Made by a program: the position numbers and the translations under genes. A model generated the notes under the pieces. It had not been told where the DNA came from, did not search any database, and saw only the letters and a program-made list of their open reading frames with translations. DNA of 62,830 bases, filler included. It is 18 parts of 18 records of this genome, joined end to end, with 100 filler letters (N's around TTAATTAATTAA, not from the genome) between each part and the next. Parts side by side here need not be neighbours in the genome. Positions count along the whole stretch, not along the records: positions 53,281 to 59,308 come from SRR16133337_13396; 17 more parts are not named here. One strand, written 5' to 3'. Shown here piece after piece: positions 1,828 through 59,410 of this stretch; the first letter of the stretch is position 1, and the number at the start of each line of letters is the position of its first letter.

Positions 1828-4407
1828 AATGTTCTCAAGACGCTCACTGTGATGACTATAATCCGTGCACATTTGATATGTGCGTCTCTAGTATGTGTTC
1901 ATACTTCTTGGCGGATGGGGACCCATGTAATTTTCAAGAACAACCTGGTGTCTGTGAGAAAGGAAGCTGTGTGATCTCTCCTGGTACGTCTGTAATACTT
2001 TTTTCGTGCAGTGCAAAACATTATGAGATTGTTCCTCTGTTTTGCTTAGATGCTCAAGTCTTTAGTGTAGTACATTCATAATACGCATTGTTTTGTTGCC
2101 TGTACAACCAATGACTTTAAGAAAAATGCAGAAAATGCCCAAGCGATAGATTATTTGTAGTAAATCAAAAAATCAGATACGCGAATACAAGCATGCGAGA
2201 ACTTTTTGATAGCGCATCGTATTTCGGGATTTGTGGAATGGTATTTTAAATTGTCATTTTTCTTTCATTTTTCGTCTCGTTTTTTAAGTCCTGGGCTCCC
2301 TAGTAGATTAGATGTAATTTTACTCATATAGCTGACTTACGCAAATACGTATTGTGGGGTGAAACTATAACATTGAATTCAATTTTTCAAATCGAACAGT
2401 GTACCCAAAAGCTAGGTTTGTGTTTTACATATACTTTTTCATGAAAAAGTGCTAGTATCACTGTTTTGTATGCACAAAAATACTATATTGTGATGGGCGT
2501 CACAACAGAAATGTATTCGTTTTAAAATATAAACATGCAGATGTAGTAAAAAGTATTGTGCAATTTCTTGACAATTGGTTAATTTTGTGTATGGTATATT
2601 GTAAGTGCTAAAAAAGTTTCTATATTCTTCCATACTATATCGCGGTCTCCAGTGTTTTGTGAATACTATCTTGTGATCTTGCCAAAACTACGCATTAAAT
2701 ATTTGAATTATATCAAATTAGATCTTGAATATTTTTTGTAGATAAGAACATCACATTTACCCCGGAAGAAGCATCTCTTTTAGCTGCTAATTTCTTTGAA
2801 GTCAATGGGACAAGAGAAGTTCGCCATCCAGATGCAATTTGGTTTGAAGAAATGAGACAAGCGAGCCCATCTCCACAAAAAACAGCATTCGTTTTTGGAT
2901 GTAATAAAGGATTCAATGCACTCGAAACTTTAATAATGTGGGATGATACTTCGCATCCTTTTAGCAGAACTGAATGGTATGAAATGCAGAAACAACAAAT
3001 TACATCAAACTGTGGCGGCGCGAATTGTAGTGCTTTGGAAATTTCTCCTATTCGAGTTAAAGGTATGCAAAATCGTGGGAAATTGTTGTTGTTTTTGATT
3101 GATGGTTCTTTACACTTTCTTCTTTGCTCGCTTGTTTGTAAGGTTATTTATTTACTAATTTTATTAGTATATTATAAATCTATTACATCCCAGGGGAGAA
3201 ATACATGATCCATTAATTATGGGAAAGAGTTTCAGAGTACTTATTTATAATTTTTGTCAAACATTTAAAATGATACCCCTTCTCACTCATTTAGAAAGCA
3301 AATACACATAAAAAGTACAATCCTCTCTTTTAAAGACTAAAAACTATAAACGTTTTAATTTAGGTGTAGTGCGTATGTATGTGTCTATTTCCGTGGTTGT
3401 ACTCGAGGCATCACACTATTATTCAACGAATTTATGTGAGTTAATTGCTCGCTTTGAATGAAAAAAGAGCGATAAATTTGGATTTTGTCGATTACAAATA
3501 CCTAGTACAGGCTTTTACCTTAGTTTGGAACATTTATGATTTGTATTTATATATTTTCGTTTTATTTTTATTTTTACTTAGATCATTCTGAGAGATCACC
3601 AATTGTATTTTGTATTGAACCCCTACCCGATAATATCGAACTTTTAAAACAATCTTCCGAGTGGCTCGGATACGACAAACCGCATGGAGGACATGTGCCC
3701 ACTGCGTTTCCAATTGTATTTGCTGCAGGTAATAGAGAACGAAGACATTTCATGCCCAAAAATTAAACAATTTATCTTTGTGATACTCCCGAAAAATTCT
3801 CTCAGAATACACACGAGCAGAGACAATATTTCATTTTTGTGCCATAACCAAACAAATTTTGCCACTTTACAGACTTATTTCTTAAAACAATTATTTAACC
3901 AACTTTCGTTGTCAATCGGAAAGTGGAGACGGGACTCTTACTCGTCCGCAATAGTAAGCTTTTACATACCATAAATTCAAACAAAATTCTTTTTATTCCA
4001 ACTTTGAATTTACTGTTTCAAAAGATGATTTTTTTGTTTTTGCTTTTGGAATATTGAGTCACAATTCCGTCATAAGAATAAAAGATAATAACTTTTGTAA
4101 TCCAAATTTTAGGTTCTGATACAGATGGAACGGTCGAATTTTCGAAACATGGTGGAAAAGGAAATGAAATTGAATCAATTAGATCTGAGGCTGGTTCTGA
4201 CACCGCGCCAGTGGAAGCAATTACAGTTGATACTCTCAAAAATCGCTACAATCTTCAAAAAGTTGATATTTTACAAATTGACACTGAAGGACATGATCCA
4301 GCTGTTTTATATGGCGCTCGAAAAACACTAGAACATGTTCGTTATATTGAATTTGAAAGTCACAACCGTGGGTTGTGGGCACAAACACGATTATCAAATG
4401 TGATAGA
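1828..4407 (+). CDS. Eukaryotic spliced gene (partial): FkbM/Methyltransf_21-family SAM methyltransferase, probably with an upstream Cys-rich exon
   Basis: Phase-compatible GT-AG exons at 1828-1983 (CSQDAHCDDYNPCTFDMC...), 2742-3062 (...FVFGCNKGF...), 3582-3728 (VFCIEPLPDNIELL) and 4113-4407 (ITVDTL...VDILQIDTEGHDPAVLYGARKTL..IEFE). These match FkbM motifs in order. Joining of the first exon is inferred from phase only. Confidence 0.75.
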
Positions 4408-9332: not shown

Positions 9333-10335
9333 CTAAACAGTTTTTTAAGAAACACTTTAAAGCCAAATTTGAACGTTGCTTGCCACCTCACACATAAAAA
9401 ACCATTCAATCGGCAATTTAAAAGCACACACACACACACGCCGGCGTGATTTTCTCACATAATGATATCCTGTGATTTATAAACACTAATATTTCTTTTC
9501 TCTCGCGAAGTCATCCCCGCAGTATATCAAATTACCCCCCACCCCACACCCCCACACACACTCCTTATTTTCGGTGGTTTTTTATCCTTCAGAGGGGGTG
9601 GGTGTGGGGTGGGTGTTAATTACTATTGTGAAGTATTACAAAAATGAAAATAATAATTTTCAGAAATGGATTTTCAACATACCAGCGTACGAAAATCGGT
9701 GTTTTATGCATCAAAGGATTGTTTTCAAAGTCCGAAAACACATAAATACATTGCAGTTTGTTCATCCAACATGTGATTTCGAAAGTCTGAAAGCACTGAC
9801 TTAGTGATTTCGGACTTCGAAAATTGTTTCAAAAACAATATTAATATTCAAAAACTTAGCAAACACAAACACACACGAGCAACCACCACCCCATAGCAAA
9901 CTACCACTCCTTATTGCTTGTCCAGAACACTGTTTAAGGAGGGAGAGGTTACTCTGTAATATTCAAGCTCTTGTCTCAAAAAAATGCGTAAATTCCATCT
10001 CAACCAGGCATTGAAATATCTTCACTATACTTCCATTGTTGCTGTGTAATGGTATGACGCATTGTGTGCACAGGGTCGCGGTCCTGGTTCGAAATGCTTG
10101 AAAAACCAGCAGAAATTATGTTTTGAATTTGAACGAGCAACAAAAATGGCATCAATTATGGGAGATAATTTTTAAAAAATCAATGGGAGGAAACACTTCC
10201 CAAGAGCCATGTTTTCCCCTCAATCTGATGGTTGTTTATCCATAAACACTTCACAGCTAAAGTTCGGATAACTGCAGTGCTTTTGTAAAATATGCGATTT
10301 CAATCTCTCTCTCTCTTTCTTTCACTCCAACTTAC

Positions 10336-10641
10336 CTCCAAAAAATGCCGGGCATTCTGGATGAACACCTCCATTTTCGATAGCATTCCTAACAGACTGA
10401 ACTTGACAAGCATCATCACCAAAATTATCATGTAACCATCCCGGATCTTCGTTGTTCTCATCACATACATCGCAATAGTAGTGAAACAAATCGCAAAAAG
10501 TTTTTGCATATTCATCACCGCTTGCAACGCAAGTTGCGTTGCCTTGGTAGTAAAATTCCTCACCACAAATTTTGAAGTCATCAGGATCTAGATTTTCTTG
10601 AAGGAATACTTCTCGCCAGCGGTCTGTCATGGAACAGTTCT
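10336..10641 (-). CDS. Eukaryotic exon, Cys-rich acidic extracellular-type module, probably the same gene as the LDLa exon
   Basis: TTGTAG acceptor and GTAAGT donor, 306 bp, phase 1-1, open frame NCSMTDRWREVFLQ...HPECPAFFG. Family not recognised. Confidence 0.65.
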
Positions 10642-28743: not shown

Positions 28744-30612
28744 ATGGCCACAGATGCAAAGCGGAAGAAGAAAGATGATAAGAAATCGAAAAAGAAATCA
28801 GATCTAAAGTCTGGTAATGTTGGTGGTGAAACGCTCGCTGCGGCCTCCTCCACAGCCTCAGGAGGGGGCTCTGACCATGCTTCTTCCACAAAACCAAAAA
28901 GACCTCTCAGTAAGTGAAAAATTTGGGTCTTTGGAAACTTTCACCAACAGCTTGTGGTCACTTTTGTGAAATTCAAATTGTTTTGAATATTTTTCATCAT
29001 TTTGCGTTTGTTCTCCCTGACACGTTTGTTACTCTCGTGTGCCACCCCGTGTGTGGAAATATTTTGAGAAAATGACGCTGTATGCTCTCTGAATATCTCT
29101 TTAGCCATCTTTGCTGTTGTAGGAGATGTTTTGAGTGTTTTTGTTTCGTTGATTTTCAGTGAAATATATGGCTGCGTCTTTTTGTCTATATTTTCAAAAC
29201 ATTACGGGGTGCTTGAAATGTTGATATGCTCATTTTGTGCTGCAAAAGGGGAAAATTTAAGTGCAGAATCACTGCACCAAAATATTTACCAAAAAAAAAA
29301 AAAGAATATGCCCTGGGTCAACTCTAGAAGGCCTGTTTGCGTGGCGAGATGGCTGGGCATATTTTTGATACAAACACATCCAAATGTCGCGAAAAAAATG
29401 GCTTCAGTTGGGTAGCAAGATCTGAGAAAATTGGAATTCGAACATAATTTTAACTCTTTTCGGATTGAGAGGATGTAGGACAACATTTTATTTTGGGAGA
29501 GTAATGAAAAGTTAATTTGCGTGAACATCTTTTCAAAAACAAGCGTGAACGAAACAGAATTTTGAACATGAGCAGCAATCATCTCTCTCTACGATCTGAT
29601 GATGTTTTCAAAATTGAAGGTGGATCATTTTCTGTATCTTCCTTCTCTTTAATGAGCATATTAATTGTAAACACTTTGTTCTTGCCCTGGTGTGAGGAGT
29701 TCAAATTGAGTGGGAAATGATAAAGTGCATCTTAATACATCAAATATTGTGACGGTCAAACTTTTCGAAAATAATTGAAATTGCGTGGTATTTTTCACAT
29801 CCTTCCCCGTTTTTGTGAATGATAAGACGCTAAAAGTCATCGAAATGTTCCTTTTTAACATATTTTCCACGACCCACAAAATTTCAGGTCCGTGAACCAA
29901 AAGAACCCAACATGACTTCCTAACTGTAGTATTTAGAAATGTTGAACACGTCGTGTTTTAGCCATTGATGAAAATTCTCTTGGGTGGAGTGGGTTCTGGT
30001 GAAGAGGGTTTAGTCCTTGCAACTACATTTTACCTGTTTTACTTCGAGATTATTGTTTTCAAATTAATGACAATATTCTTTTTCGCTTTTGTTGAATTTG
30101 GTACATGCAGTCGTATGTATGGCATTTCAAATTTTTCAAAAATGTTATTTTTTTCAACTACAGTTCAATTACAAAATTGAAAATTGTGAAAAATATGAAT
30201 TCATGCACGAACAATCTAAAAAACGTACATTTTCACTGAATCAACAGACGAACTTTTTCAGACCTGGGAAAAATTTTAAGCAAATTTTTTGATTTTTTTT
30301 CGCAGTTTTTTGAAAATATTAAGATGCGCATTTTTCTCCTCTGATTTGACCTCTTCATATTACGAACAATTGTCACAGGCGTTGGCACAGTTGTACGGAT
30401 GATATCTGGTTTACAACCACGATCACCTCGTTCGTCACCACCATCATTGTCTACACATTCTCATCGTCTTACATCTTCTTCCTCTTCGTATCAACGAGGG
30501 GGAGGAAGTGGTTCTCAACCAACAAATTTAACTTCTTCCTCTTCTAGCTCGCATATGCTTACAAGCGCTTCTGGTCCGAAGAACACGGCCACTACGCAAT
30601 CAACTACCAAGA
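28744..30612 (+). CDS. Eukaryotic spliced gene (partial): Lys- then Ser-rich low-complexity protein
   Basis: GCCATGG start. Exon 28744-28909 ends at GTAAGT; exon 30379-30612 (CACAG...GTGAGT) is phase-compatible. Confidence 0.6.
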
Positions 30613-32135
30613 GTGAGTGCGCACTATGCACTTCTAGTAAAATTTAGTATTGGAATTATTAAGAAATCTATTAAATTTAATATTTGGAAATTTTGTTACG
30701 TTATTTCTAAAAACAACGCTCCTTCCCGCAGATACGATTCCAGTTCGAATAGATTAAGGTCAAGGTTTTAGATACAATTAATTTTGAATATTTTTTTCTT
30801 GCCTATTCTGATTTCTTCGCCACTCCCCCATAATTGCATATTATTATTTTTCAAGAACTGTGTAAAAAATCGCCACTGATGCAGTTATCATAAATAAGTT
30901 GAAACAAAAAACTAAAAATCAAACTTTAAAAAACATTAGCCAAAAATTTTGTTGCCTAGAATACAAACGTGTGGGCTACTTGAGTCTCGTAGTTAATTGA
31001 ACTGAAAAAGGCTGTCAGATGTCGTTACTTATATCGAGTGGAGTATTTGTGAGATTAGCCGTTGGTCACAACGTCAAGCAACCTGTCTACTAGTGCATTT
31101 TTGATATAAAAACGAAACAAAAAACATAGTTTTCTACATTTTTGTTCAAAATTTGGTAAAAAATACAATGTGTTCAATTGATGTTCTGTAATGTAAACAG
31201 GCAAAACGTAGTGNNNNNNNNNNNNNNNNNNNNNNNNNNNNNNNNNNNNNNNNNNNNTTAATTAATTAANNNNNNNNNNNNNNNNNNNNNNNNNNNNNNN
31301 NNNNNNNNNNNNNAATACCTGAATCCCCAAAAGAACATTTTCAGGCAAATGTTTTGAAGGTTTTCGACTCCTTTTTTCATGTTTGCATTCTGTTGTACAT
31401 TAAAACACGGACATGCAAAAATGGGATCCTCACAAAAATTTTACGGTGTATTCTCGTAACAAGGTTCACCTTTTTGTTTTTCTGGAATCATTGTCTCTGG
31501 GACATGAAATTCAGTTTTGTTTTGTTTTTTTTTGTGTGTGTGTATTTTCATTTCATTTTTGATGGTTTGCTTGCCTATGGTACATCTTGCCGAAACGGAA
31601 AACTTTTTTGCGTTGATTTATGAAATTTTGCCTACAGTATTCGTCGTGGGGGAAATTCAAATTTTGATATTTTTTCATGAAAAGTGATGTACAAAACGAA
31701 AAGTGAAATATTTTATGTAAAAGCGAAAATCCTTCGTCTTCATTTTCATTTTTTACTTCATTTTCATTTTTCACTTCATTTCCATATGAAAATGAAAGAA
31801 AGCGAAAATTTATTTTGAATTTTCAGTTTCGCAAATTATTCACAGATTAATCTATTAATTGGTTCTCAGAAATTAATTAATTACGTAATTTTGCATGCCA
31901 CCGAAAACGTGGGCCAAGTGTTTGTGTGGGAGGTGGTGGTGGAGGGAGGTGTGTGTGGAGGTGGGAGTGTGTGGATGGTTGTTCAATAATTATTTACGAT
32001 ACGGCCACTTGAGTCTCCAAAAAAGAAAGAAAAAGGAAACCATACCAACAAAATGTATTTTTGGAATTTTTGTTGAAAAGTGCGCGTGTATGTGTCATGA
32101 GATTCGAACGATTTGTTTTTGTTTTTTCCCTTTAG

Positions 32136-53150: not shown

Positions 53151-53280
53151 AATTAAGAATGATGAGCGGTTAAAATGATANNNNNNNNNNNNNNNNNNNN
53201 NNNNNNNNNNNNNNNNNNNNNNNNTTAATTAATTAANNNNNNNNNNNNNNNNNNNNNNNNNNNNNNNNNNNNNNNNNNNN

Positions 53281-53362
53281 ATGACATCCAGACTGCAAGA
53301 CAAAAAACGGCATCACGGTATCACTGTTTTACCGTATCACGACAAGACTGCAAGACAAAAAA
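53281..53362 (+). repeat. Short-period (8-bp) intergenic repeat tract with an 18-bp direct repeat
   Basis: AGACTGCAAGACAAAAAA at 53290 and 53345. Octamers ACGGCATC ACGGTATC ACTGTTTT ACCGTATC ACGACAAG ACTGCAAG at 53307-53354. Confidence 0.7.
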
Positions 53363-53408
53363 AGAATCTTACAAATAATAATTCTACGGACTAAAAACGA
53401 TTAAGTAA

Positions 53409-56400
53409 ATGACAAATAAAAAAGTTGACAAAGAATTTGGTTTATCCTCATGGGCTATCCATAATAAAACAACGATTTATGTACTGATCGTTTTGATTCT
53501 ATTTTTAGGAATCTCTGCCTATTTTAGTATGCCAAGAGAGAGTTTTCCGGAAATTAAAGAAACGAAAATCTATATCAGTTCTGTGTATCCTGGTAATACT
53601 GCAGAAGACATCGAAAAACGAATCTCAAATCCTTTAGAAGACAAACTAAAAACGGTTAGTAATGTTGTAGAAATTACCTCAACATCACAAGAAGATTACT
53701 CCATGATCATTGTTGAATTTGATGAAAACATCACCGTAGAACTCGCCAAACAAAAGGTAAAAGACGAAATCGATTCTGAAATTTCTGGAGAAGACTGGCC
53801 CACATTTAATGGAGCAAAAGTAGAACCCAATGTTTTTGAATTAAGCTTATCAGAAGAAATTCCAATTCTTAATATCAATATTTCTGGAGACTATCCTGTC
53901 TCTAAATTAAAAGAGTTTGGAGAGTATTTACAAGATGAAATTGAAGATTTACCTGAAATTAAAAAAGTAGATATCCGTGGAGCCCAAGACAAAGAAGTAG
54001 AAGTTGCTGTAGATATTTACAAGATGATGGCGGCAAAAGTAAGTTTTGAAAACATTATAGATGCAATTAACAAAGGAAATACAACCATGTCGGCAGGTAA
54101 TTTTATTACCAGTGGACAAAGACGCACCATTCGTATTCTAGGAGAAATAGAAAAACCTTCAGATTTAGGAAACTTTGTCATTAAATCAGAAAATAACAAT
54201 CCTATTTATTTAAAAAACGTAGCCGTAATTTCTTTTAAAGAAAAGGAAAGAACCACCTATGCAAGGGAGTATGGCAATCGTGTTGTTATGCTGGATGCTA
54301 AAAAAAGAGCGGGTAAAAATATGGTTGCTGCCGTAGAAAAAATTCAAAAAATTGTAAAGGAGGCAAAACAAAACATTTTTCCAACAGATTTAAAAGTAAC
54401 CATCGCCAACGATCAATCTGTAAAAACAATTGGTCAAGTAGATGATTTGGTAAATAATATCATTTTTGGAGTTATTCTAGTAGTCACTGTGTTGATGTTT
54501 TTCTTAGGATTTAAAAATGCAGTTTTTGTTGGATTTGCAATTCCGATGTCAATGTTTATGTCATTAATGATCTTAAATTTATTAGGATACACAATGAATA
54601 CCATGATTCTTTTTGGCTTGATTATGGGACTCGGAATGCTGGTAGATAACGGTATTGTGGTTGTAGAAAACGTTTACCGCTTAATGGATCAAGAAGGAAT
54701 GGGAAGAGTAGAAGCTGCTAAGAAAGGAATTGGAGAGATTGCTTTCCCAATTATTATTTCTACAGCAACTACAGTTGCCGCATTTATTCCGTTAGGTTTA
54801 TGGCCAGGAATGATGGGAGATTTCATGATTCTTTTACCAATTACACTTTCTACAGTTTTAGGTTCATCTTTATTTGTTGCTATTTTTTTTAACTCAGTAA
54901 TGGTTTCTCAATTTATGAATATTGAAGATAAAAACATGCCTTTAAAGCGCATGGTAATTTTGTCTTCTGGCATGGTCATCATCGGGCTTTTCATTTTACT
55001 TTTCGGAGATGTATATCGTGCCTTAGGGAGTATTATGGTATTTACAGCGATGATGCTTTGGGTCTATAGACTTGGATTGCGTAAAATAACTCATTATTTT
55101 CAAACAAAAATACTGACTCGTTTAGAAAATTGGTACGAAAGACAATTAAGACGTTCCTTATCAGGTTGGAGAGCTTATCTATTAACTTTGGGAACCTTTT
55201 TATTATTGATTGTTGCCTTTATGACATTTGGAATTTCTGTAAGCAAACAACGAACAAAAATTGAATTTTTCCCAGATAACAAACCCAATCAAATTATTGT
55301 CTATATCGAATACCCACAAGGAACAGCTATCGAAAAAACCAACACCATTACAAAGGCAATTGAGAAGAAAGTTTTTGCTGTTTTAAACGATAAAATGTAT
55401 ATAGATGCTGGGTATAACTTTTTGGTAGAAAGTACCGTTTCTCAAGTAGGCGAAGGTGCAGGAAACCCTCAAACGGATGGAGGATCTGCTGCAGAAATGC
55501 CTCATAAAGGAAAAATTACGGCTTCTATGCGAGAGTATAAATACAGACGCGGACAAGATAGTGAACTCTTAAGACAAAAGGTTCAGAAAGCTTTGGTTGG
55601 AATTTATCCTGGAGTTTTAATTTCTGTCGAAAAAGATCAAAACGGACCTCCGGCAGGATCTCCTATTAATATAGAACTAGAAGGAAAGGATTATGCAGCA
55701 TTAATTGAAGCGGCAGAAAAAATGCGTAATTTCATCAATACAAAAAATATCGCAGGTATCGATGAATTAAAAATTGATGTGAATAGAGATAAACCTGGAA
55801 TGCAAGTTGTTGTTGATAGAAAAAAAGCGGGTGAGTTTGGTGTCGGCACGGGTCAAGTGGGACAACAACTTCGAAATTCCATTTTTGGTAACAAAGCGGG
55901 AGTCTATAAAGAAGATGGAGAAGATTATGATATTTATGTTCGTTTTAATAAAGAAAATAGATACAATAAGAGTGCTCTTTTTAATCAAAAAATAACGTTT
56001 AGAGACCCCTCTACTGGTAAAATCAAAGAAATTCCTGTATCTGCCCTAGCGAAACAAAATAATAATTCTGGATTTAGTGCCATTAAACACAAAGATGTCA
56101 AAAGAGTTGTATCTGTCTATTCTGCTTTATCGCCCGGATTTACAGATGCTGGAGCTGTGGTAAATCAGATTCAAAATGAAATGCAAAATTTTAAAGAATT
56201 TCCAAAAGGAATTCAAATTGATTATACAGGTCAAATAGAAGAACAAAATAAACAGATGGCCTTTTTAATGAGTGCTTTTTTTAAAGGTTTAGCGTTGATT
56301 TTTTTCATTTTAATATTCCAATTTAATTCTGTTTCCAAACCCGCAATTATTATGTTGGCAATCTTTTTAAGTTTGATTGGAGTTTTTGGAGGCATTGTTA

Positions 56401-56870
56401 TTACAGGAAAACCCTTTGTTATTATGATGACCATGATGGGAATTATTTCGTTAGCAGGAATCGTAGTCAATAATGGGGTTGTCTTATTAGATTACATACA
56501 ATTATTAATCGATAGAAAAAAGGTGGAACTGGGGGTAAACGAAGAGGATTATTTAGACACGAAAACAGTATTTGAAAGTATTGTACTTGCTGGTAAAGCA
56601 CGTTTACGTCCCGTATTGTTAACGGCAATTACAACCATTTTAGGATTAATCCCCCTTGCAATAGGTTTCAACATAAACTTCTTTACGCTGTTTGATGAAT
56701 TTGATCCAAATATTTATTTTGGTGGAGATAATGTTATCTTTTGGGGCCCCTTAGCATGGACTGTTATTTATGGGCTTTTTGTAGCTACCTTTTTAACTCT
56801 AATTATAGTACCCGTTTTATTCTTTTTAATCACAAAATTTAAAATGTGGTTACGCGTAAAAATGGTATAA
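53409..56870 (+). CDS. RND efflux transporter permease (AcrB/AcrD/AcrF family)
   Basis: 1153 aa with two TM halves; GMLVDNGIVVVEN, GIVVNNGVVL, RLRPVLLTA. Confidence 0.95.
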   Translation: MTNKKVDKEFGLSSWAIHNKTTIYVLIVLILFLGISAYFSMPRESFPEIKETKIYISSVYPGNTAEDIEKRISNPLEDKLKTVSNVVEITSTSQEDYSMIIVEFDENITVELAKQKVKDEIDSEISGEDWPTFNGAKVEPNVFELSLSEEIPILNINISGDYPVSKLKEFGEYLQDEIEDLPEIKKVDIRGAQDKEVEVAVDIYKMMAAKVSFENIIDAINKGNTTMSAGNFITSGQRRTIRILGEIEKPSDLGNFVIKSENNNPIYLKNVAVISFKEKERTTYAREYGNRVVMLDAKKRAGKNMVAAVEKIQKIVKEAKQNIFPTDLKVTIANDQSVKTIGQVDDLVNNIIFGVILVVTVLMFFLGFKNAVFVGFAIPMSMFMSLMILNLLGYTMNTMILFGLIMGLGMLVDNGIVVVENVYRLMDQEGMGRVEAAKKGIGEIAFPIIISTATTVAAFIPLGLWPGMMGDFMILLPITLSTVLGSSLFVAIFFNSVMVSQFMNIEDKNMPLKRMVILSSGMVIIGLFILLFGDVYRALGSIMVFTAMMLWVYRLGLRKITHYFQTKILTRLENWYERQLRRSLSGWRAYLLTLGTFLLLIVAFMTFGISVSKQRTKIEFFPDNKPNQIIVYIEYPQGTAIEKTNTITKAIEKKVFAVLNDKMYIDAGYNFLVESTVSQVGEGAGNPQTDGGSAAEMPHKGKITASMREYKYRRGQDSELLRQKVQKALVGIYPGVLISVEKDQNGPPAGSPINIELEGKDYAALIEAAEKMRNFINTKNIAGIDELKIDVNRDKPGMQVVVDRKKAGEFGVGTGQVGQQLRNSIFGNKAGVYKEDGEDYDIYVRFNKENRYNKSALFNQKITFRDPSTGKIKEIPVSALAKQNNNSGFSAIKHKDVKRVVSVYSALSPGFTDAGAVVNQIQNEMQNFKEFPKGIQIDYTGQIEEQNKQMAFLMSAFFKGLALIFFILIFQFNSVSKPAIIMLAIFLSLIGVFGGIVITGKPFVIMMTMMGIISLAGIVVNNGVVLLDYIQLLIDRKKVELGVNEEDYLDTKTVFESIVLAGKARLRPVLLTAITTILGLIPLAIGFNINFFTLFDEFDPNIYFGGDNVIFWGPLAWTVIYGLFVATFLTLIIVPVLFFLITKFKMWLRVKMV

Positions 56871-56904
56871 ATGTCCTTTAGCCTGTTTTTAGTTACTGAC
56901 TTAT

Positions 56905-56948
56905 GCAGAAAAAGAATTTGTGAAATCTGCGGATCTCTGTGGGAGAAA
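56905..56948 (+). repeat. Truncated third copy of the GxxExxY-associated hairpin, with the loop in inverted orientation
   Basis: GCAGAAAAAGAATTTGTGAAATCTGCGGATCTCTGTGGGAGAAA. The loop AAAAAGAA is the reverse complement of the TTCTTTTT loop in the other two copies. Confidence 0.7.
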
Positions 56949-56956
56949 TAAAAGAA

Positions 56957-56980
56957 ATGATGACAGAAAACAACCTTTAA
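56957..56980 (+). pseudogene. Internally deleted ('empty') GxxExxY copy, MMTENNL*
   Basis: ATGATGACAGAAAAC-AACCTTTAA equals the start of the 57065 gene joined in frame to its end across a shared AAAC. Confidence 0.85.
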
Positions 56981-57060
56981 TAAAAAGTTTCCCGCAGATC
57001 TCGCAGATTTTCGCAGATTCTTTTTCTGAGGATCTCTGCGAAATCTGCGGGAGAAAAAAA
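56968..57060 (+). repeat. 93-bp direct repeat, copy 1, containing a ~65-nt imperfect hairpin
   Basis: TCCCGCAGAT CTCGCAGAT TTTCGCAGA-loop-TCTGAGGATC TCTGCGAA ATCTGCGGGA. Four mismatches versus 57433-57525. Confidence 0.93.
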
Positions 57061-57064
57061 AGAA

Positions 57065-57445
57065 ATGATGACAGAAAACGATATCTCATATAAAATAAGA
57101 GGAATCATATTTAACATCTACAATACACTTGGTCCAGGCTTATTAGAATCCGTTTATGTAGCCGCTTTTGTGTTTGAATTAAAAAAAGAAGGTATAAACG
57201 TTAAGAAAGAAGTACCTGTACCCGTTTATTATGAAAACGAAAAATTAGAAGTTGGTTTTAGATTAGATTTGTTAGTTGAAGACAAGGTAATTATTGAAGT
57301 AAAATCCGTAGAACATTTAGCAGAAGTACATCATAAACAAGTATTGACCTATTTAAAACTCACAAAATTAAAACTAGCTATATTGGTGAATTTCAATGTA
57401 GACGATATAAAATCAGGAATCTTTAGAAAGGTAAACAACCTTTAA
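57065..57445 (+). CDS. GxxExxY protein (PD-(D/E)XK-like nuclease fold, PDDEXK_3)
   Basis: 126 aa; LGPGLLESVY signature, FRLDLLVEDKVIIEVKS, QVLTYL, LVNFN. Confidence 0.95.
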   Translation: MMTENDISYKIRGIIFNIYNTLGPGLLESVYVAAFVFELKKEGINVKKEVPVPVYYENEKLEVGFRLDLLVEDKVIIEVKSVEHLAEVHHKQVLTYLKLTKLKLAILVNFNVDDIKSGIFRKVNNL

Positions 57446-57525
57446 TAAAAAATTTCCCGCAGATCTCGCAGATTTTTGCAGATTCTTTTTCTGCGGATCT
57501 CTGTGAAATCTGCGGGAGAAAAAAA
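57433..57525 (+). repeat. 93-bp direct repeat, copy 2, containing the same hairpin
   Basis: Offset 465 bp from copy 1, 89/93 identical. Begins within the last codons of the GxxExxY gene. Confidence 0.93.
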
Positions 57526-57622
57526 ATAGATGCTATTTCCAAAATGACAGCTTGTAAATTCTTAATTTTTTAAACCTTTCCCCATCAATTCTAAAACCCT
57601 AAAAACTTTTACAATCTTTTGG

Positions 57623-59308
<1,686 letters not shown>

Positions 59309-59410
59309 NNNNNNNNNNNNNNNNNNNNNNNNNNNNNNNNNNNNNNNNNNNNTTAATTAATTAANNNNNNNNNNNNNNNNNNNNNNNNNNNNNNNNNNNN
59401 NNNNNNNNCC

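Follow-up and report, generated by a model that had tools for sequence, protein, structure and literature searches.

Just upstream of a full-length gene of the GxxExxY family, the stretch of DNA analysed here (62,830 nucleotides, hereafter the window) carries a short open reading frame (ORF), MMTENNL*, that starts like the gene and ends like the gene. The question raised by this locus is whether such a hollow copy is the remains of a gene, a site into which a gene inserts, or a mobile unit in its own right. We favor the first answer and put a probability of roughly 0.78 on the reading that the hollow copy arose by tandem duplication and a subsequent deletion, at a locus rich in hairpins and prone to recombination. 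The window itself is a pseudo-molecule, pieced together from short contigs with 17 N-linkers between them, in which neighbouring pieces are not necessarily adjacent in the genome. Each linker is composed of 44 N, TTAATTAATTAA and another 44 N, and the 17 sites are spread across 4700-59408 (e.g. 53181-53280 and 59309-59408). The tandem of hollow copy and full gene sits on a 6.0-kb piece, 53282-59308.

The hollow copy consists of the gene leader and the first 15 nt of the gene fused straight to the last 9 nt and the tail (window 56951-56986). Its front part is the 21-mer AAAGAAATGATGACAGAAAAC, found at 56951-56971 and again at 57059-57079, where it makes up the leader and codons 1-5 of the ORF 57065-57445. 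The remainder, AACCTTTAATAAAAA, occupies 56972-56986 and recurs at 57437-57451 as the last two codons, stop and tail of the full gene. In local alignments, 56936-56971 matches 57044-57079 at 34 of 36 positions and 56968-57000 matches 57433-57465 at 32 of 33, and the overlap of these 5' and 3' alignments is the tetranucleotide AAAC. A repeat search returned two direct repeats over the same region, D2 (56936-56986 vs. 57044-57094) and D1 (56968-57067 vs. 57433-57532; 100 nt, 94% identical, spacing 465). The full unit measures 489 nt (57044-57532) and the hollow one 132 nt (56936-57067), a difference of exactly 357, which is the length of the missing core in base pairs. Residues 6-124 are absent, seven codons are left, and the nuclease domain is not encoded. 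Sequence matching, alignment and translation of 56957-56980 thus agree with the original prediction, which had described a leader and start running into the gene end with 357 bp absent, AAAC at both junctions and the product MMTENNL*, with a hollow unit and a full one in tandem. The features of the locus are listed below; its hairpins are built of left-type (L) and right-type (R) arms, each a row of heptads.

53409..56870, forward strand: gene for an AcrB-family RND transporter, the upstream neighbour (PF00873, E 2.3e-152)
56906..56944, no strand: H0, a truncated hairpin, complementary to the H1 left arm and made up of the last left-arm heptad, an R-type arm and a flipped loop
56945..56956, forward strand: A-rich leader of the hollow copy, part of D2
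56957..56980, forward strand: hollow ORF MMTENNL*, the gene's first 15 nt joined to its last 9 nt
56968..56971, forward strand: AAAC junction microhomology, one copy here and one at each core end of the full copy (57076-57079 and 57433-57436)
56990..57052, no strand: hairpin H1 with left arm 56990-57017, loop 57018-57024 and right arm 57025-57052; 28-nt arms, 82% complementary
57053..57064, forward strand: A-rich leader of the full gene, part of D2
57065..57445, forward strand: full GxxExxY gene, 126 aa (TIGR04256, PF13366)
57080..57436, forward strand: 357-bp core, codons 6-124, without counterpart in the hollow copy; its placement is ambiguous by the 4-nt AAAC
57455..57517, no strand: hairpin H2 with left arm 57455-57482 and right arm 57490-57517; 28-nt arms, 79% complementary
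57518..57532, forward strand: degenerate leader and ATG after H2, the end of D1 in the repeat comparison
57670..59298, forward strand: CTP synthase gene (pyrG), the downstream neighbour (PF06418, E 8.1e-125)

How could the core have been lost? Unequal recombination or replication slippage between repeated hairpins would have duplicated a 465-bp unit, comprising leader, gene, tail and hairpin, in tandem. The upstream gene copy would then have been placed between the R-type arm of H0 and the complementary L-type arm of H1. Pairing of H0 with H1 in single-stranded DNA could have brought the two AAAC repeats close together, and slipped mispairing between them would have removed the 357-bp loop. 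The repeats belong to GAA-AAC (codons 4-5) and GTA-AAC (codons 123-124), which places them 24 and 19 nt in from the base of the H0/H1 stem. Inverted-repeat stems of this kind, with short direct repeats inside them, are a classic setting for slipped mispairing. The proposed event is similar to the inverted-repeat-stimulated "precise excision" of Tn10 and Tn5, in which the sequence between inverted repeats is lost and a short direct repeat (here AAAC) is reduced to one. It differs in that the direct repeats are internal coding sequence and not a transposon target duplication, and in that the mechanism is one we infer.

The predicted folds are compatible with this geometry. H0 and the left arm of H1 (56906-56944 vs. 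56990-57028) are 72% complementary over 39 nt. H0 alone gives a weak fold of -5.4 kcal/mol, and the segment 56900-57049 folds into one long stem of H0 and the H1 left arm with the hollow ORF in the loop (-28.3 kcal/mol, z -4.21). As DNA, H1 folds at -20.3 kcal/mol (z -4.46) and H2, which has a 7-nt loop, at -19.0 kcal/mol (z -4.28). Each arm of H1 contains three CGCAGAT-type heptads and matches the arm profile described below, and H2 has three CGCAGAT-like heptads per arm. The surviving gene shows the same geometry as the hollow copy, being placed between an R-type and an L-type arm: the right arm of H1 and the left arm of H2 are 94% complementary over 18 nt and are 402 nt apart.

Since the two AAAC copies share one codon phase, the remnant stays in frame, and selection is not needed to explain it. 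Hollow and full copies have in common an ATGATG start and a AACCTTTAA end. In most close relatives the start is instead ATTATG or a lone ATG and the end is GGNCTN-stop, which argues for a local origin of the hollow copy. The duplicated parts differ at 2/36 and 6/100 positions, a divergence of about 6% that has accumulated since. Hence, the duplication and deletion are not very recent, and the proposal that the junction is evidence of a recent rearrangement is not supported. In isolation, the hollow copy is a microhomology deletion of an ordinary kind. Unit duplication followed by such a deletion, one of the routes put forward in the original prediction, is the best fit to the D1 and D2 repeats, the AAAC overlap and the 357-nt difference.

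We compared the locus with its relatives in other genomes. A protein query against genome contigs gave 80 GxxExxY loci (L001-L080; 62-92% identity, with up to 10 kb of flank per side), nearly all from Bacteroidota; counts out of 81 below are these loci plus the window. The junction 21-mer, ATGACAGAAAACAACCTTTAA, has a single occurrence in the window and appears in 0 of 100 shuffles. It is also missing from all of the 88 fetched loci that the search covered beyond the window (1.24 Mb in total; the public genome collection was not scanned for the junction). Multiple dispersed copies had been suggested as the sign that the hollow unit itself moves, and no such dispersal was seen.

Each locus was also searched for partial copies with its own gene start and end (18-mers, up to 3 mismatches) or with its own gene (blastn). 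Partial copies were found beside the full gene in L012, L023 (three), L035 (two), L044 (two) and L073 (four), or, with the window, in 6/81 loci. At each locus they have their own junction, unlike that of the window. Every partial copy at up to 700 bp from the gene forms a tandem with it, and beyond 1 kb the search gave only short or low-complexity matches and one repeat of a non-genuine gene start in L036. In L023, the full gene has hairpin-hollow units both before and after it; the hollow retains some 48 nt from the 5' end and some 25 nt from the 3' end, with an overlap of about 4 nt, and its product reads MDENEIAYKILGALYLNRQ* after a frameshift. L073 has four upstream units with a 161-nt period, in which some 43 nt from the 5' end survive, and L035, L044 and L012 contain repeats of 3' ends and hairpin only. 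Some remnants were read by eye, and those in L003, L040 and L022 rest on such reading. By eye, the two junctions of L044 fall in TTTAA and A-run microhomologies. L003 has about six units of some 110 nt, whose spacers resemble start and end stubs with the start ATA, and L040 reads ATGACAGAAATAAT, with its junction at the same GAAAAY/GTAAAY position as in the window. A test for short gene-start remnants (12-mer, up to 2 mismatches) was noisy, giving 0.29/kb near the gene vs. 0.136/kb far from it. L023 is a scaffold from the genome of a Gillisia limnaea isolate, and L003 is a Bacteroidales record at chromosome level; such arrays are therefore not confined to fragmentary assemblies.

The hairpin arms proved to be a regular companion of the gene. 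An arm profile was built from 97 R-arms and 98 L-arms. The consensus of the L arm is TTTCCCGCAGAT-nn-CGCAGAT-nnn-CGCAGAAA, and the R arm, roughly its complement, ends in ATCnGCGGGA-gAa; each arm thus has three CGCWGAT heptads, inverted between the two arm types, with the conserved termini CCCGC...GCGGG. The profile found 435 arms, and in 79/81 loci one or more of them lie within 700 bp of the gene. Under a stricter definition of the token, the density of arms is 3.59/kb within 500 bp of the gene, 0.06-0.26/kb at 0.5-4 kb and at most 0.04/kb beyond 4 kb in flanks of up to 10 kb. Six of the eight near-matches to ATCTGCGGGA in the window are at the hollow/full locus. The gene lies inside the palindrome (L-gene-R) in 30/81 loci and between two hairpins, as in the window (R-gene-L), in 18/81; R-gene-R and L-gene-L account for 7/81 each, arms are downstream only in 16/81 and upstream only in 1/81, and two loci of the 81 have none. 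Complete hairpins number at least one in 47 loci and at least three in 18, with a maximum of eight.

Conservation in these arms concerns the sequence of the heptads and their phasing rather than base pairing. The heptads are spaced by 9 or 10 nt, about one helical turn, in 239/256 L and 241/259 R spacings, and Tandem Repeats Finder reported nothing at the locus beyond this 10-nt period. The heptad centre is A in 317/397 L heptads (80%), and in R heptads it is T in 218/402 (54%) and A in 139/402 (35%); with this asymmetry many of the predicted hairpins have A-A mismatches. In 91 hairpins, inter-heptad complementarity was below chance (84/455 vs. 118.8 ± 8.7 with shuffled partners), and the heptad centres showed no compensatory change (105/273 complementary vs. 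111 ± 4.7 shuffled); at the first heptad there are no L=T/R=A pairs against eight T/T pairs. As base pairing is not conserved, putative arrays of protein-binding sites would fit the arms better than a selected RNA or single-stranded DNA structure. A search of 56700-57700 against Rfam 15 at E ≤ 10 gave no match at the gathering score, and sub-threshold matches were to generic hairpins (miRNA precursors) only. In L054 (10379-11100), eight consecutive L-type arms with a period of about 95 nt follow the gene with no R arms among them, a row that the hairpin model leaves unexplained.

Where the last arm ahead of the next co-oriented ORF is of the R type, the first start codon of that ORF is within 25 nt of it in 23/54 loci, with a mode of 5-15 nt, and in hairpin-gene-hairpin loci the spacing between the R arm and the ATG of the GxxExxY gene is the same as before downstream ORFs. 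The R arm and its A-rich leader have the look of a portable unit placed directly ahead of start codons; alternatively, this position may be a preferred landing place. In L001 (2444-2500), L002 (10382-10460) and L003 (10379-10460), the element is directly upstream of the same gene, which starts with ATGCAAATACCATTAAACGAATTTGA or a close variant. This shared downstream gene spans three genomes and two orders, and it could reflect either conserved linkage or co-transfer.

With these data the competing accounts of the hollow copy can be weighed. Miniature inverted-repeat transposable elements (MITEs) are internal-deletion derivatives of transposons with terminal inverted repeats, and the original prediction had considered a MITE-like derivative. 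The hollow unit does keep both inverted ends without the coding interior: the R-type arm of H0 and the L-type arm of H1 flank the stub as terminal inverted repeats would. It could then be a non-autonomous unit, similar to MITEs or to hairpin-forming doublets of repetitive extragenic palindromes (REPINs), with the full unit supplying in trans the nuclease that copies it. The near-identical hollow units of L073, L023 and L003 would suit such copying, as would arms that are almost exclusive to the flanks of GxxExxY genes and of a type that follows the protein subfamily (see below). Against it, the partial copies are in tandem with the full gene, arms become rare a few kilobases away from it, and the junction is confined to one site in the window. 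No target-site duplication was visible by eye at 15 simple L-gene-R elements of 446-567 bp, the protein is no known transposase, and amplification by unequal crossing-over accounts for the arrays without transposition. We consider such a mobile derivative unlikely. The reverse possibility, also raised originally, is that the hollow copy is an unoccupied target into which the 357-bp core inserts with duplication of AAAC; in a variant of this account, the core would be restored there by recombination, with stubs and arms as homology. AAAC on both sides of the core resembles a target-site duplication, the remnant is in frame, and arms and stubs together would give about 100 nt of homology per side. 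However, the stubs correspond to coding ends that the family conserves: 20/20 aligned proteins have M2, E4, N5 and L126 without exception, and their termini are MTEN... and ...RKVNxL. The window resembles its relatives at the DNA level only over 56954-57530, and this similarity runs uninterrupted across the supposed core boundaries. Because the MTEN and KVNxL ends are conserved and the similarity is continuous, the stubs are gene remains and not a pre-existing target. The gutted copies in L023, L073, L035, L044 and L012 have other boundaries, hence there is no common, fixed core that could insert, and in 16/81 loci a lone gene stands between one L and one R arm with no stubs nearby. An unoccupied target is therefore highly improbable.

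An assembly artefact, in which a deletion allele and a full allele of a mixed population were stitched in tandem, is quite improbable as well. It is true that linkers connect the short contigs of the window and that repeats of about 100 nt pose a problem for short-read assembly. On the other hand, several positions of H1 distinguish it from H0 and also from H2, and the differences from H2 make a collapsed repeat or chimera less likely. The junction of H1 with the gene shares few bases with either alternative, and equivalent hollow-plus-full tandems occur in the isolate scaffold L023 and the chromosome-level record L003. We give next to no credence to a selected leader peptide or regulatory unit between the two hairpins. 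The seven-codon ORF has its start, stop and frame intact and is upstream of the full gene and pyrG, but remnants elsewhere are not conserved as ORFs (frameshifted in L023, starting with ATA in L003, 3' ends only in L035, L044 and L012), and the in-frame state already follows from the codon phase of AAAC. This leaves the deletion derivative of a tandem duplicate, against which several points must be set. Its order of events, duplication and then deletion, is deduced, and a microhomology of 4 nt is short. The role of hairpin pairing in the deletion would follow from general knowledge of such deletions. Furthermore, there are many near-identical hollow units in L073 (four), L023 (three, on both sides of the gene) and L003 (about six by eye), so that hollow units are themselves amplified, something that purely passive decay does not require. 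Even so, on the reading that we prefer, the hollow unit is a by-product of an unstable locus and neither an insertion site nor a demonstrated mobile element.

The full gene product is predicted to be a minimal PD-(D/E)XK nuclease of the RecB/Cas4 type. The ORF 57065-57445 matches TIGR04256 GxxExxY (E 3.4e-41, 140.3 bits, cut-off 35) and PF13366 PDDEXK_3 (E 1.6e-40, 138.5 bits, cut-off 22). In alignments of 20 and 72 sequences, conservation of G25, E28, Y31, D68, E78 and K80 is complete or at least 90%, and Q92 and Y96 are invariant or nearly so. Conservation of D68, E78, K80, Q92, Y96 and the glutamate of the GxxExxY motif makes an active nuclease likely. An AlphaFold2 model made with the 72-sequence alignment reached a predicted local distance difference test score (pLDDT) of 96.1; this alignment replaced a shallow one of 20 sequences, which gave 63.2. 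The best Foldseek matches in the PDB were the AddA nuclease domain, Cas4 (SSO0001 and Pcal_0546) and lambda exonuclease, with E-values of 3e-3 to 1e-2 and template modelling (TM) scores of at most 0.57 (individually, 4ceh_A at E 2.9e-3 and 4ic1 at TM 0.56-0.57). Weak Cas4 profile matches were also obtained (E 0.0035-0.0076), and a profile search of PDB sequences returned none. The protein shares the fold and the catalytic D...ExK and QxxxY motifs with the nuclease domains of Cas4 and the RecB family, and it differs in being a 126-aa minimal core, without helicase partner or CRISPR context and with a similarity below family level.

The family is very large. In a word-indexed protein search, 7,999 of 8,000 scored candidates had E ≤ 0.001 (best identity 92%), and an exhaustive search gave 16,252 clusters at 50% identity with E ≤ 0.001. 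The family's entry in a survey of PD-(D/E)XK proteins gives its function as "Unknown" (PMC3424549). Several members of about 265-295 aa, among them P0128, P0132, P0134 and P0135, contain two tandem GxxExxY domains and may be fused products of tandem gene units. The GxxExxY frames of L046 and L055 carry internal stops and are probable pseudogenes.

Distant members of the family have arms of other sequence. We examined eleven such genes, eight of them tblastn matches on plasmid records (31-44% identity) and three second copies in L017, L061 and L077; all eight plasmid records are below 60% identity, and tblastn returned no phage record. Bacteroides finegoldii and Bernardetia have CACAGAG heptads upstream of the gene and three CTCTGTG heptads downstream, and Gemmatirosa has CGCAGAG/CTCTGCG hairpins. 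These Bacteroides, Bernardetia and Gemmatirosa replicons (L081 1130-1610, L082 1150-1640 and L083 250-950) show triple heptads and GAACC...GGTTC-like termini. In L017, two paralogues 7 kb apart (3208-3579 and 10001-10378) are 51% and 76% identical to the query, and the former has flank repeats of the CACAAAG/CTTGGTG type vs. the CGCWGAT type at the latter. The second genes of L061 and L077 and those of Fusobacteria, Treponema and Prevotella are flanked by other inverted or direct repeats. A score for upstream and downstream flank repeats, inverted or direct, was matched by at most one of 173 control pseudo-sites for 8/11 distant genes and by 3-4 of 173 for two more; Sphingomonas showed none. 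This alignment score was used in place of an exact-6-mer periodicity test, which had caught 3/11 distant genes vs. 1/231 controls. Judging from these sequences, the heptad type changes with the protein subfamily.

These observations point, tentatively, to a larger possibility, which we regard as less probable than its negation. The GxxExxY gene and its subfamily-specific inverted heptad arms might together form an undescribed selfish module of nuclease plus binding sites, a PD-(D/E)XK counterpart of REPtrons and TIRtrons. Its nuclease would recognise duplex heptads, the module would settle a few nucleotides upstream of host start codons and spread between lineages, activity on its own arms would drive amplification and gutting, and hollow units such as MMTENNL* would be its non-autonomous offspring. 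The GC content of the gene is below that of its flanks in 81/81 loci (mean 31.7% vs. 39.0%). The window is 87% identical in protein and 78% in DNA to a Bacteroidales record, whereas many Flavobacteriaceae copies reach only 70-77%. On a quick, weakly resolved tree of 79 proteins (125 columns; L046 and L055 were dropped for their internal stops), class labels change 21 times, against a minimum of 5 and a shuffled mean of 29.8; this discordance with taxonomy would be compatible with transfer. The elements are co-oriented with their neighbours in 58/70 cases downstream and 65/78 upstream. A search of open-access papers and bioRxiv found no description of an association between GxxExxY and repeats.

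Several known systems invite comparison. A hollow unit resembles MITEs in keeping both inverted ends after loss of the coding interior, and it differs from them in having neither a target-site duplication nor dispersed copies in the window and the 88 loci. Multi-site transposon ends and iterons carry several phased protein-binding repeats per end, and three repeats per arm at about one helical turn, inverted arms and conserved termini are similar to this; here, however, the arms are putative binding sites, and neither a known transposase, of the DDE or another type, nor a target duplication is present. In layout the loci resemble REPtrons and TIRtrons, described in PMC3733652 as RAYT or TIRYT genes flanked by REP palindromes or long inverted repeats. 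They and REPINs share with the GxxExxY loci a small single gene bracketed by short palindromic or inverted units, adjoining hairpin doublets or clusters, and a repeat type specific to the gene variant. They differ in having a Y1 HUH (RAYT) transposase where the GxxExxY loci have a PD-(D/E)XK nuclease, and GTAG- or CGTC-tagged stem-loops where the latter have three phased heptads per arm. REPIN-RAYT systems are recognised by high-copy dispersal, whereas GxxExxY arms are almost exclusively gene-adjacent within the flanks of up to 10 kb.

Some observations concern the surroundings. An alignment of the string AAATGACAG after H2 with the gene, considered as a third gene remnant, was not significant (score 23 vs. 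a shuffle mean of 23.7) and was rejected. The AcrB-family gene, the GxxExxY unit and pyrG are the sole content of the 6-kb contig, in which no integron integrase, attI or attC was found (no attC model was applied), and a scan of the locus for sigma-70 promoters and terminators was uninformative. Elsewhere in the window, 30300-31200 differs from its AT-rich bacterial surroundings, with long serine/threonine-type codon runs and no obvious bacterial ORF, and this piece may be a foreign contig in the bin.

The family-wide module of nuclease and heptad arms is a more interesting result than the hollow copy that led to it. A very large protein family shows a regular architecture, in which inverted arrays of three phased heptads nearly always bracket the nuclease gene, and this architecture explains the assembly breaks and tandem junk at GxxExxY loci. 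The arrays that bracket the gene, heptads that depend on the subfamily and the lack of base-pair covariation together provide a testable hypothesis for the family, namely that GxxExxY proteins may recognise their own flanking repeats in a sequence-specific manner.

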